From Candidatus Calditenuaceae archaeon HR02 (lineage in GTDB: Archaea; Thermoproteota; Nitrososphaeria_A; Caldarchaeales; Calditenuaceae): a stretch of DNA of 10,112 nt. The stretch is from the NCBI GenBank assembly GCA_002898395.1, contig BEHE01000031.1, forward strand, positions 1 through 10,112, read 5' to 3'. The position numbers and the translations under genes were made by a program. Positions 1 to 10,112 of the stretch are shown piece by piece. Under the pieces are notes generated by a model. That model searched no databases, was not told where the DNA came from, and worked only from the letters and a program-made list of their open reading frames with translations. The stretch's first letter is position 1. Every line of letters starts with the position of its first letter.

Positions 1-112
1 ACGAGTGGTGGATATGGTAAGGGATTTAAATACTGCTCAAAACACCAACAATACATAAACACAGAACAGGTTAAATGCAACACAAAACCTGAGAAACAAG
101 TCAAGAAGATAG
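1..112 (+). pseudogene. 3' remnant of a small zinc-ribbon protein gene (same family as 8760..9012 and 9629..9932), 5' end outside the window
   Basis: Manual translation of frame 1 gives TSGGYGKGFKYCSKHQQYINTEQVKCNTK. A +1 shift at about 85-88 gives LRNKSRR* (TAG 110-112). This aligns with GGKYRAGYKYCCRCRAFQLTDSVWCPYCGVKLRTRP at 8836 onward, but the second CxxC is collapsed to one Cys. Confidence 0.5.
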
Positions 113-8063: not shown

Positions 8064-8606
8064 ATGAGAGAGTTTCCTATAGCTGGTCTAAAGATTATCG
8101 TCATGAGAGGGGACATAACGGAGGTTGAGGCCGACGCCATAGTGGTTCCAGCTAACAGCAGGCTCATCATGGGTGGCGGCGTGGCAGGAGCTGTGAAGCG
8201 TAAGGGTGGCGCTGAAATAGAGAAGGAGGCAATGAGCAAAGCGCCAGTCCCAGTCGGGAAGGCCGTAACAACAGGCGCCGGAGCGTTGAAGGCGCGCTTC
8301 GTAATACACGCACCAACAATGGAGAGACCAGCAGGTGAGACAGACCCTGACAAGGTGTACATCGCCACTCAGGCAGCTGTGAGGGAGGCGCTGGGGCTTG
8401 GACTGAAGACTATAGCCTTCCCGGGAATGGGGACTGGGGTCGGCGGCCTCAACCCTCTAGTAGCAGCCCGAAGGATGGTTAAGGCAGTACTGGACACGCT
8501 ACATGGAAGTGAACAGCCTCTCGAGCGAGTATACCTGGTAGCCTTTGACAAGGAGCTAGAGGATGCCTTCAAGACCGCGGTAGAGGAGCGTGCCGAAAAC
8601 CCCTAA
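8064..8606 (+). CDS. Macrodomain protein (ADP-ribose-binding, AF1521/YmdB-like)
   Basis: GDITEVEADAIVVPANS.L.MGGGVAGA, T.AG.LKA.FVIHAPTM and IAFPGMGTGVGG. Confidence 0.93.
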   Translation: MREFPIAGLKIIVMRGDITEVEADAIVVPANSRLIMGGGVAGAVKRKGGAEIEKEAMSKAPVPVGKAVTTGAGALKARFVIHAPTMERPAGETDPDKVYIATQAAVREALGLGLKTIAFPGMGTGVGGLNPLVAARRMVKAVLDTLHGSEQPLERVYLVAFDKELEDAFKTAVEERAENP

Positions 8607-8636
8607 AAGTCAGTACAGAATCTGGACAAAAAGAGG

Positions 8637-8710
8637 GCCCCGGTAGCTCAGCCAGGTAGAGCGGCCGCCTCGTAAGCGGCAGGTCGCGGGTTCAAACCCC
8701 GCCCGGGGCT
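8637..8710 (+). tRNA. tRNA-Thr(CGT), intronless, CCA not encoded
   Basis: Acceptor GCCCCGG/CCGGGGC, D-stem GCTC/GAGC, anticodon stem GCCGC/GCGGC with loop CT-CGT-AA (anticodon 8671-8673), T-arm GCGGG-TTCAAAC-CCCGC, discriminator T. Confidence 0.96.
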
Positions 8711-8759
8711 AATTAAATTCTAACCCCAATCCTTCGTAGAAAAATCCAACCGAGGAGGC

Positions 8760-9012
8760 TTGGGCCCTAAAATATCTTGGCTAATATGTAGCCATTACTG
8801 CTCCGACTTATCTCCCTCTCAAAGACCCTTAGGGAGGTGGGAAGTATAGGGCTGGCTACAAATACTGTTGTCGATGCAGGGCGTTTCAGCTAACTGATAG
8901 TGTCTGGTGCCCATACTGCGGTGTGAAGCTGAGGACTAGGCCTACAAGGGAGTATAGAAAGGGGTGGCCTAAGAGGTATGTAAGCTTCATGGAAGGGATG
9001 GTGGACGGATGA
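8760..9012 (+). pseudogene. Frameshifted small Cys-rich zinc-ribbon protein
   Basis: From TTG 8760: (M)GPKISWLICSHYCSDLSPSQRPLG. A +1 shift in the G run at 8832-8834 continues GGKYRAGYKYCCRCRAFQLTDSVWCPYCGVKLRTRPTREYRKGWPKRYVSFMEGMVDG* (TGA 9010-9012). The start is uncertain. Confidence 0.65.
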
Positions 9013-9015
9013 GGG

Positions 9016-9490
9016 ATGAACCACCCATCATATCCGTTAAGGGTCAAGCTGTGTCAACAAGTTCTATAGTTCCAGGGCGAGGGTCTAAGGTATGAAATGA
9101 TTCAGAAGAGGATTTTACGATGGTGACGGGCGGGCCCGATGCCAGCCTACATAAACACCAACGTTGAATTGCTCGATTATAACAGAAAAATTCTTGCCGA
9201 AATCGGTATTACGACAAGTCCATTGATAATGTGGGAGAAAAAGGGTAACAAAGCATGGCACCCGAGGAGGTGTGGATAGAGGAGAAGAAGAATGCTTAGT
9301 GTGTATATCTATCCATTATGGACTATCAAAGGTTCTTGGAGAAGGTCGGAACATCTATAACTAAGAAGGGGCATCTCGTCGAACTCTTGATAAAGATGAA
9401 CCGGTGTTGTATGGATGGGATAAGAGAGAGGAAGGATTGGTGGGAGATTTGTGAGATGTTACAGAAAAGTATCGGCAGGAGAATGATGAA
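9016..9490 (+). pseudogene. Degenerate free-standing LAGLIDADG endonuclease with N-terminal HTH-like segment
   Basis: Fragments across frames: MNHPSYPLRVKLCQQVL*FQGEGLRYEMIQKRI (9016-), FRRGFYDGDG (9101-9130, LAGLIDADG helix), AYINTNVELLDYNRKILAEIGI (9145-), and EKKNA*CVYLSIMDYQRFLEKVGTSITKK (9282-). In-frame stops at 9067 and 9297 and at least three frameshifts. The 3' end is approximate. Confidence 0.75.
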
Positions 9491-9628
9491 GCTCAGACGA
9501 CCCCCCCTTATCCTCTCATACTTATATAATTTAACGGCGTTGGGTGGGGATTATACCATTCCGAGGTAATGGAGTTTGAGAATAACTTCTACGCCATTGT
9601 TATTGAGAGTGATACTTTTAGGCCTTAA

Positions 9629-9932
9629 CTATTCCAGATCCTCTATTCTTGTGGTTATGTATTTCTTCTCACCGTTATTTTTTCTTGGCTTTTTTCTGGG
9701 TTTTCTACTGCAGTATGGGTAGTGGTCGCCTTTGTCCCAGCTTGATTGGCAGATAGGGCAGTATCCCTCCCCACACCTATAGTTTGGCTGGATATGCGGT
9801 ATGTAATAATCCGAGTCTAGCCTCTCTCCAGGCCTATACGATATTCCATCCTCTATCCATAAGTCGATATGGATGGGCTTCTCCCCCTACTAGTAGCTCT
9901 GGCTGGAGTAGATATTTCTTGCTCACAGGCAT
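9629..9932 (-). pseudogene. Second degenerate zinc-ribbon paralog, converging on the LAGLIDADG relic
   Basis: ATG 9932 gives MPVSKKYLLQPELLVG. A +1 shift in the G5 run at 9883-9887 continues EKPIHIDLWIEDGISYRPGERLDSDYYIPHIQPNYRCGEGYCPICQSSWDKGDHYPYCSRKPRKKPRKNNGEKKYITTRIEDLE* (TAG 9629-9631). The first Cys of the second CxxC reads Tyr. Confidence 0.55.
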
Positions 9933-10072
9933 CCTAAGCCTGAAGCCAGCAGTAACATCATATCTACAAGTAAAAGTCTTCCACTAAAGCTGCTAGGGTT
10001 TAGCATCTAGCCGTCTATCTCTGGAGGAGATGTGTTGGGGTTGGAGATGTTGTTATAGACCCTTTGGCCGGG

Positions 10073-10104
10073 GTAGGGGGGTACTCCCCACTACATGTAG
10101 GGGG
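10073..10104. repeat. Alternating direct/inverted short repeat (GTAGGGGG / CCCCACTAC / GTAGGGGG)
   Basis: GTAGGGGG at 10073-10080 and 10097-10104, inverted copy CCCCACTAC at 10086-10094, and perfect palindrome CTACATGTAG at 10091-10100. Confidence 0.5.
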
Positions 10105-10112
10105 CCTAGATT

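Follow-up and report, generated by a model that had tools for sequence, protein, structure and literature searches.

A probable dead and displaced copy of a zinc-ribbon and LAGLIDADG mobile unit in a Calditenuaceae archaeon, and an archaeal family of free-standing LAGLIDADG genes at tRNA 3' ends

The window analysed here is the entire 10,112-nucleotide (nt) contig BEHE01000031.1 of Candidatus Calditenuaceae archaeon HR02 (assembly GCA_002898395.1; contig C31 of genome G000, which comprises 1.73 Mb in 36 contigs and is 93.65% complete; other C-numbers likewise denote contigs of G000). Positions 8831-9534 probably represent a dead, displaced copy of a mobile unit in which a zinc-ribbon leader gene (Zn1) was followed by a gene for a helix-turn-helix (HTH) and two-domain LAGLIDADG endonuclease (subfamily sf1); on the same reading, sf1 is one branch of an extensive family of archaeal LAGLIDADG genes, free-standing and abutting tRNA 3' ends, and Zn1 is the 5' module of an IS110-like element. 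The original prediction, made from the letters of the window, was of the relic of a two-gene zinc-ribbon and LAGLIDADG cassette that spreads on its own and sits at the 3' end of a tRNA-Thr gene, an interpretation that is partly supported. The interest lies in the family and the shared ribbon module and not in the window copy, which cannot encode an enzyme and is debris.

The tRNA 3'-end placement claimed for the cassette holds for the family, to which it was traced in the genome of the window and elsewhere. In G000, merging of tblastn matches gave 35 loci, and 42 tRNAs were recognized (41 by Infernal and one by ARAGORN). Of the 35 loci, 25 are tail to tail with a convergent tRNA gene, the two 3' ends being 10-110 nt apart, and 25 of the 42 tRNAs have such a LAGLIDADG neighbour; four of the ten exceptional loci lie no more than 600 nt from the end of their contig, beyond which a tRNA may have escaped detection. 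The same layout is present in 6 of 9 loci from relatives. A foreign set of 80 loci was drawn from named genomes of Caldarchaeales, Nitrososphaerales, Thermococcus, Methanocaldococcus and Archaeoglobaceae, and 51 of the 74 loci that could be tested are tail to tail with a tRNA (two of the tRNA calls, with huge "introns", are dubious). The genes of the family are antisense to the tRNAs and outside them, and literature searches, at the level of search results, returned no description of a LAGLIDADG pattern at tRNA flanks. A purine-rich run (GGGGGAGGGG-like) that is found 50-100 nt downstream of many tRNAs (25 of 32 flanks of tRNAs called by ARAGORN) is the antisense of the Pro-rich C-terminal tail encoded by both LAGLIDADG subfamilies.

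The best copy of sf1 (C25:18401..17476, minus strand, about 290 amino acids (aa) with one in-frame TGA) encodes an HTH and the motifs YVVGSVLSDGN and LRGFFDGDG, and only 5 nt separate its stop codon from a convergent tRNA-Ser gene, at the 3' end of the latter. Its C-terminal frame of 191 aa matches the Pfam family LAGLIDADG_3 (PF14528) with an expectation value (E) of 1.5e-6 and 28.8 bits against a cut-off of 22.5, and the PF14528 profile has 18 matches in the genome. The second subfamily, sf2 (30-35% identical to sf1), is represented by intact genes on C2 (61530..60649) and C28 (9850..8966). With the C2 protein as query, 459 relatives were retrieved, and those listed carry PF14528, many under the name of LAGLIDADG homing endonuclease. 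The AlphaFold (AF2) model of a 75%-identical relative of sf2 (predicted local distance difference test, pLDDT, of 85.6) has the two-domain alpha-beta-beta-alpha-beta-beta-alpha fold, and its top Foldseek match is I-DmoI (2vs8, E 1e-9, template modelling (TM) score 0.78 by target), followed by PI-PfuI and I-SceI. The archaeal monomeric two-domain LAGLIDADG proteins exemplified by I-DmoI (PF14528) have the fold and the two acidic-ended motifs in common with the present family; I-DmoI, however, is encoded in an rRNA intron (as PDB titles have it), whereas the present genes are free-standing, possess an additional N-terminal HTH and occupy the opposite strand outside tRNA genes.

That the HTH-LAGLIDADG gene is free-standing, with no intron, intein or integrase, was borne out by the Pfam and fold matches of the family and by the following searches. 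The frames in the window are bounded by stops and have no extein, giving neither an intron nor an intein setting, and no RNA family besides tRNA was detected in 8500-10112 (E up to 10). The tyrosine integrase profile PF00589 has no match in the 93.65%-complete genome, whereas 14 of 14 control genomes were positive. It is highly improbable that a provirus or integrase-borne island at tRNA-Thr(CGT) carries the two genes as cargo, with an integrase and attR past the contig end. The contig does end 1.4 kb after the tRNA with the far side unseen, and a published model for a relative invokes integrase-type integration at tRNA-Thr loci (PMC3293823). Besides the missing PF00589 matches, however, every match to the tRNA-Thr sequence in the assembly is a whole tRNA gene and no orphan 3' end exists, the first 120 nt or so past the tRNA are the host flank known from relatives, the same modules stand beside more than 20 different tRNAs, and no tRNA-end direct repeat of at least 10 nt was found in 14 other flanks. 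The scan for an integrase and attR that accompanied the original prediction was thus negative throughout the assembly, the sequence past 10112 being unseen. Split-integrase remnants of the SSV type were also considered for the conserved coding tail beside many tRNAs and were rejected: the frames are LAGLIDADG frames, with no PF00589 match and no tRNA-end repeats.

The dead copy of the sf1 gene in the window (9016-9534, plus strand) is homologous to the better copies of the family, with the ancestral stop position at 9532-9534. The ATG at 9016 opens a frame (MNHPSYPLRVKLCQQVL*) that corresponds to the N-terminus of those copies, and another ATG (9009-9011) overlaps the TGA (9010-9012) of the ribbon frame; the two start codons and this TGA, like the tRNA-Thr gene, had been correctly recognized at the outset. 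The N-terminal HTH part (9016-9114) is interrupted by an in-frame TAG (9067-9069), and a deletion of about 350-380 nt relative to the C25 copy, with its junction within 9073-9115 at an AGAGG(A/C)TT microhomology, has removed the first nuclease domain. The second LAGLIDADG motif, FRRGFYDGDG (9101-9130), is in another frame and further frameshifts follow; of the two acidic-ended motifs, the window copy therefore retains only the second, out of frame. With the TAG, the deletion and the frameshifts, its predicted status as a relic is confirmed. The sf1 fragments of the window have no Pfam match of their own and are tied to the family by BLAST (52-66% identity). The sole tRNA lies on the 5' side of this copy and not 10-110 nt from its 3' end, and past 9534 Infernal (E up to 10) detected no tRNA or remnant of one; a candidate tRNA remnant at 9535-9628, tRNA-like by eye but unproven, was rejected on the same search.

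The region is a junkyard of genome-wide repeats. Bases 8600-10112 have 47 matches within the genome of the window, and a piecewise map gives one further copy of 8738-8830 (90% identity), three places matching 8837-8972 at 84-85% identity plus several weaker ones, more than 20 places matching 9099-9530 (69-80%), a copy of 9354-10112 on C2 (90%), and five further places matching 9618-10112 (78-90%), several of which are contig ends; C31 itself terminates inside this last repeat. Because each piece recurs in the genome at 70-90% DNA identity, the features of the window are more than chance. Logan contigs from one hot-spring DNA run bridge 8682-8957 and 8957-9590; as the genome may have come from this very sample, they do not support the window independently, and they contained neither the joints nor an empty-site form. 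Protein relatives from the genome of the window are labelled Nitrososphaerota, Caldarchaeum or Calditenuis in the databases.

The leader frame Zn1 (8833-9012, plus strand, 59 aa from stop to stop, C-x2-C-x11-C-x2-C) opens 121 nt past the tRNA and not about 50 nt as initially stated, and it has no ATG, GTG or TTG ahead of the first Cys. Its tail (WPKRYVSF...) forms the junction to the endonuclease gene, and such a tail ((W)PKRY(I/V)(S/R)V...) is directly upstream in all five sf1 copies that keep the N-terminus (the window, C25, C11, C6:52599 and C29:5743), for which reason the junction is considered ancestral to sf1 in this genome. The Zn1 frame and the frame from 9016 are one reading frame parted only by TGA-GGG, and the C25 copy runs from the ribbon tail into the HTH without a stop (GGWPKRYISVPEQVEVGLERHYLPYPVRV), as though the ancestral sf1 had been a single Zn-ribbon-HTH-LAGLIDADG fusion in which TGA 9010 is a nonsense mutation. 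This one-gene alternative is conceivable, though unlikely: a shared frame has one chance in three, the ribbon open reading frame (ORF) of the IS110-like element terminates ahead of the next gene, and no protein joining a ribbon to HTH-LAGLIDADG occurs among 1.84 billion representatives (a word search also found no fusion, which is weak evidence). The 24 database matches of Zn1 among those representatives are stand-alone proteins, nearly all of 54-91 aa, and its matches to Pfam ribbon families are all below threshold.

Zn1 looks like a member of a recruited host gene family, since a closely related gene is present, mostly in a single copy, in 37 of 41 related genomes (E 1e-24 or better). In G000 this gene encodes a stand-alone ribbon protein of 67 aa (C9:39969-40169, minus strand), from which the mobile ribbon genes are likely to descend. 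In four other genomes, additional copies of the ribbon have no LAGLIDADG gene, 290-aa ORF (the ORF of the IS110-like element) or tRNA nearby. Enrichment of an upstream zinc-ribbon gene at homologues of the endonuclease, the check named beforehand for a two-gene unit, did not materialize: a ribbon-motif ORF is found within 500 nt upstream at 3 of 66 foreign loci, compared with 6 of 355 control windows, and the three include ribosomal protein S27ae. The outcome that had been named beforehand as refuting the proposal has thus come about outside G000. No ribbon accompanies the foreign gene that is closest to sf1 and intact (an sf1-like gene of G034, 45% identical). By these sequence comparisons, Zn1 is not a general partner of the LAGLIDADG family, and the link holds locally only.

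The tRNA-Thr(CGT) gene of the window (8636-8711, plus strand, by ARAGORN; 8637-8710, 68.8 bits, by Infernal) is an intact host gene, and its order after a macro-domain gene is conserved in the genus (6 of the 13 relatives' loci scanned). Downstream of it, on the minus strand, is what remains of a small host gene for a C2H2 zinc finger: a 3' stump (8738-8830, ...CPYCDMYFESKTELSKHINRVHVGKGLLEGDKSKW*, 90% identical to C1:150374-150282, where the gene is whole) that consists of the final 90 nt or so of the gene with a 1-nt deletion. G005 and G007 possess a whole convergent C2H2 orthologue downstream of tRNA-Thr(CGT). Because only the end of the C2H2 gene is kept in the window and a whole copy is on C1, the cassette begins at 8830/8831, inside a host gene and not at the tRNA end. 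The C2H2 gene is small and conserved (about 50 aa, ...CPYCDMYFESKTELSKHINRVH..., downstream of tRNA-Thr(CGT) at loci L021 and L022), and the whole copy of G000 has been relocated to C1:150162-150317 (plus strand), where it adjoins another LAGLIDADG relic. The tRNA-Thr flanks of six relatives contain none of Zn1, the 290-aa ORF, or the two genes Zn2 and X244 from the right side of the window; the comparison for empty sites suggested with the original prediction thus found the host C2H2 gene, and no cassette, next to tRNA-Thr(CGT). One of the six, the congener G001 (L024), has at its orthologous tRNA-Thr locus a LAGLIDADG relic that converges on tRNA-Thr(TGT) from 64-306 nt downstream and shares 47% identity with sf2 over 83 aa, and so occupancy of this flank differs within the genus.

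The adjacency of the window copy to tRNA-Thr is secondary, because the copy is head-on to it, about 120 nt off within the C2H2 stump, and has no tRNA at its tail, in contrast to the tail-to-tail family; tRNA-Thr(CGT) is not the partner tRNA of the cassette. A dedicated two-gene zinc-ribbon and LAGLIDADG homing cassette aimed at the tRNA-Thr(CGT) 3' end, in which the ribbon protein would be an accessory factor, is quite unlikely, and the tRNA-Thr target of that proposal is already refuted by this polarity and by the host gene that takes the place of the cassette in relatives. It is true that Zn1 stands directly ahead of the endonuclease start, with an ATGA overlap and the ATG at 9016, that this junction is kept in the five copies with an N-terminus, that Zn1 has homologues of similar length which exist as small proteins in their own right, and that the family favours tRNA flanks; yet the upstream ribbon is neither enriched at foreign homologues nor present in G034, and the same Zn1 leads an unrelated element. 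The two-gene unit thus survives as a local association, within sf1 of this genome, of a leader gene that is not its own exclusively.

The unrelated element is the IS110-like one, from which sf1 probably obtained Zn1 or with which it swapped it. It measures about 1.5 kb, is found in full copies at C6:6010-7497, C4:237-1725 and C7:42789-41310, and consists of an inverted paralogue of Zn1 (Zn1b, whose stop codon marks the left terminus), then a spacer, Zn1 and the 290-aa ORF. The DNA of window positions 8837-8972 is 84-85% identical to the ribbon gene of the element, and at least five deletion derivatives keep both element ends (C9:46819-47566, C18:21866-22538, C11:4675-5371, C12:7965-7321 and C21:6950-6249). 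The full copies are not beside tRNAs. The 290-aa ORF resembles IS110 transposases in Atlas (structure TM 0.74 by query, feature score 0.95). IS110 is a family of bridge-RNA recombinases with a DEDD transposase, whose elements carry a non-coding RNA; in its predicted structure and features the 290-aa ORF is like them, but the present element has a protein-coding ribbon pair where IS110 elements carry the RNA. The zinc-ribbon term was not found in IS110 literature at the level of search results.

On C11, the left 470 nt of the element (Zn1b and Zn1) precede sf1, and many sf1 relics with internal deletions are capped by a solo piece of Zn1b some 130 nt long. Beside tRNA-Glu (C6:52380-52750) there is a miniature unit, about 330 nt in length, that comprises a Zn1b piece, the Zn1 tail, 36 N-terminal codons of sf1 and the C-terminal tail of sf1; it is an internal-deletion derivative preserving both ends of the whole unit. 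It is possible, but decidedly unlikely, that sf1 units were moved in trans by the IS110-like recombinase through the shared left-end Zn1b/Zn1 module and not by their own endonuclease. The arrangement on C11 and the many deleted sf1 relics that retain their Zn1b and tRNA-side ends, like the derivatives of the element itself, speak for such mobilization; on the other side, sf1 units do not have the right end of the element, tRNA-flank placement belongs to the LAGLIDADG family even in lineages without ribbon modules, full copies of the element are not at tRNAs, and its assignment to IS110 comes from likeness in Atlas alone. It is also conceivable, though unlikely, that Zn1 and Zn1b constitute a portable module for control or targeting, with its origin in a core ribbon gene of the host, that two unrelated mobile nucleases, the IS110-like recombinase and the tRNA-flank LAGLIDADG endonuclease, have exchanged; the module would be kept at the outer edge even after deletion of the nuclease gene because it is needed for movement or expression.

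Several observations weigh against the interpretation of 8831-9534 as the remains of an endonuclease-driven unit led by Zn1. Codon changes in Zn1 indicate weak constraint (7 synonymous versus 10-12 non-synonymous codons). Although 7 of 29 ribbon-module ORFs in the genome are within 300 nt of a LAGLIDADG locus, compared with 2.1% of the genome, these ORFs are related copies and the enrichment therefore does not represent independent events. Truncated sf1 relics at many tRNAs retain both ends (the tRNA-side tail and the Zn1b piece), a pattern more in keeping with a transposon-like or trans-mobilized unit than with simple homing. The 290-aa ORF has no Pfam or NCBIfam match, including the DEDD domains PF01548 and PF02371, and a PDB sequence search with it was also empty. 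Every sf1 copy in the genome is broken, and so the intact unit is a reconstruction; the contig ends at 10112, and so the content beyond is deduced from a duplicate on C2.

With these reservations, the preferred interpretation, a dead and displaced unit of the tRNA-flank family, may be put as follows. An intact enzyme would cut tRNA flanks that do not have the gene, and repair would copy the gene in, by analogy with SegB of phage T4, while Zn1 would probably be a small first gene with a DNA-binding or expression-coupling role. The window copy appears to have lost its distal end on joining to the C2H2 stump at 8830/8831, along with the first nuclease domain and the reading frame, and a later module (a 54-nt filler, Zn2 and X244) probably separated it from its tRNA. 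SegB is a free-standing GIY-YIG homing endonuclease encoded in the tRNA gene cluster of T4, and the site that it recognizes is reported to contain a conserved motif of tRNA genes, the T-psi-C stem-loop (PMC2330249). The likeness is in a free-standing endonuclease gene lodged among tRNA genes, and T-psi-C recognition like that of SegB would explain how one enzyme lineage colonized many different tRNAs; SegB differs in belonging to another nuclease family, in residing in a phage and not in an archaeal chromosome, and in having no zinc-ribbon leader.

The right side of the window also contributes to this picture. The 54-nt filler (9563-9616) matches an internal stretch of a host ORF (C3:35088-35141) at 98% identity, and the same filler is found between the sf1 relic and the Zn2 module in the C2 duplicate (C2:62654-62707); to judge by these matches, it looks like filler DNA from break repair. 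It was also considered as an RNA gene and rejected, having no RNA family match and being part of a host ORF. Positions 9618-10112 belong to a repeat module of about 1.2 kb (Zn2 and the divergent X244), of which they form the left part and which has at least six copies, several at contig ends. In the C2 duplicate, 90% identical, the sf2 gene next to tRNA-Met is intact and is followed outward by an X244 relic, Zn2, the filler and an sf1 relic, a nested order that fits the displacement of older relics outward by newer arrivals at the tRNA, and which predicts the content past 10112.

Zn2 is a frameshifted pseudogene in the window (9629-9886, minus strand, with another frame to 9983), and the only complete copy (C22:11433-11945) encodes 170 aa with an N-terminal beta-barrel and a C-terminal ribbon. 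The second zinc-ribbon copy that had been predicted to converge on the first is real as a minus-strand ribbon frame with a module related to Zn1 (hhalign probability 95.6%, E 1.1e-8, 36 columns), but it belongs to a longer, different protein in another repeat module. Zn2 has no Pfam, NCBIfam or PDB sequence match and no Foldseek match at E 0.001 or better; its top VIA-align hits (Z up to 5.5) mix B3 and EcoRII-N-like DNA-binding barrels with flavin-binding barrels and are too weak to name the fold. Of the 80 foreign loci, 6 have a ribbon of the Zn2 type, which in four cases is upstream of the LAGLIDADG gene and divergent from it. X244 is represented in the window by its first 27 codons (10030-10112, plus strand), which run off the contig; elsewhere it is 217-244 aa long and contains VIITSPPYG (C3:118390-119124, minus strand; C18:286-939, plus strand; C24:18656-19312, plus strand), which resembles motif IV of N6/N4 DNA methyltransferases, searches of Pfam, NCBIfam and PDB sequences with X244 being without a match.

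To our knowledge, free-standing homing endonucleases are well known in phages and hardly known in archaeal chromosomes. A LAGLIDADG family that colonizes most tRNA flanks would constitute a new route by which selfish DNA exploits conserved RNA genes, and would count among the causes of the rearrangements and broken assembly encountered here. The window copy, being dead, adds no enzyme, but it illustrates decay and displacement, nested with filler DNA, as well as a zinc-ribbon leader gene common to endonuclease units and an IS110-like element.

The window also ties that element to published work. In Caldiarchaeum subterraneum, an "a-b" insertion sequence was described at tRNA-Thr loci, one of them next to tRNA-Thr(CGU) (Sugahara et al. 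2012, PMC3293823), and action of a pNOB8-type integrase was proposed; the text has no occurrence of "LAGLIDADG", and the integrase model was proposed without an integrase. At the coordinates given there for "a3b4", G024 has an ORF of the 290-aa family beside tRNA-Thr(CGU), one of 8 copies at E below 1e-20, so that ORF b of the paper is the IS110-like ORF and not a LAGLIDADG gene; the candidate identification of ORF b with the LAGLIDADG gene was accordingly rejected. The element of about 1.5 kb is probably of the family of ORF b. The two have in common the archaeal order and repeated modules beside tRNA-Thr genes, and they differ in that no ribbon module was found beside the 290-aa-family ORF in G024.

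At the other end of the window, positions 4-112 (minus-strand sense) contain an isolated piece of Zn1b, some 110 nt long, which matches the left terminus of the IS110-like element at 78% identity and across which the plus frame 1-153 reads ...GFKYCSKHQQYINTEQVKC.... This piece directly precedes a gene similar to that of ribosomal protein S27ae (161-358). The start of the contig is therefore also inside a repeat, and both contig ends are in mobile-element debris.

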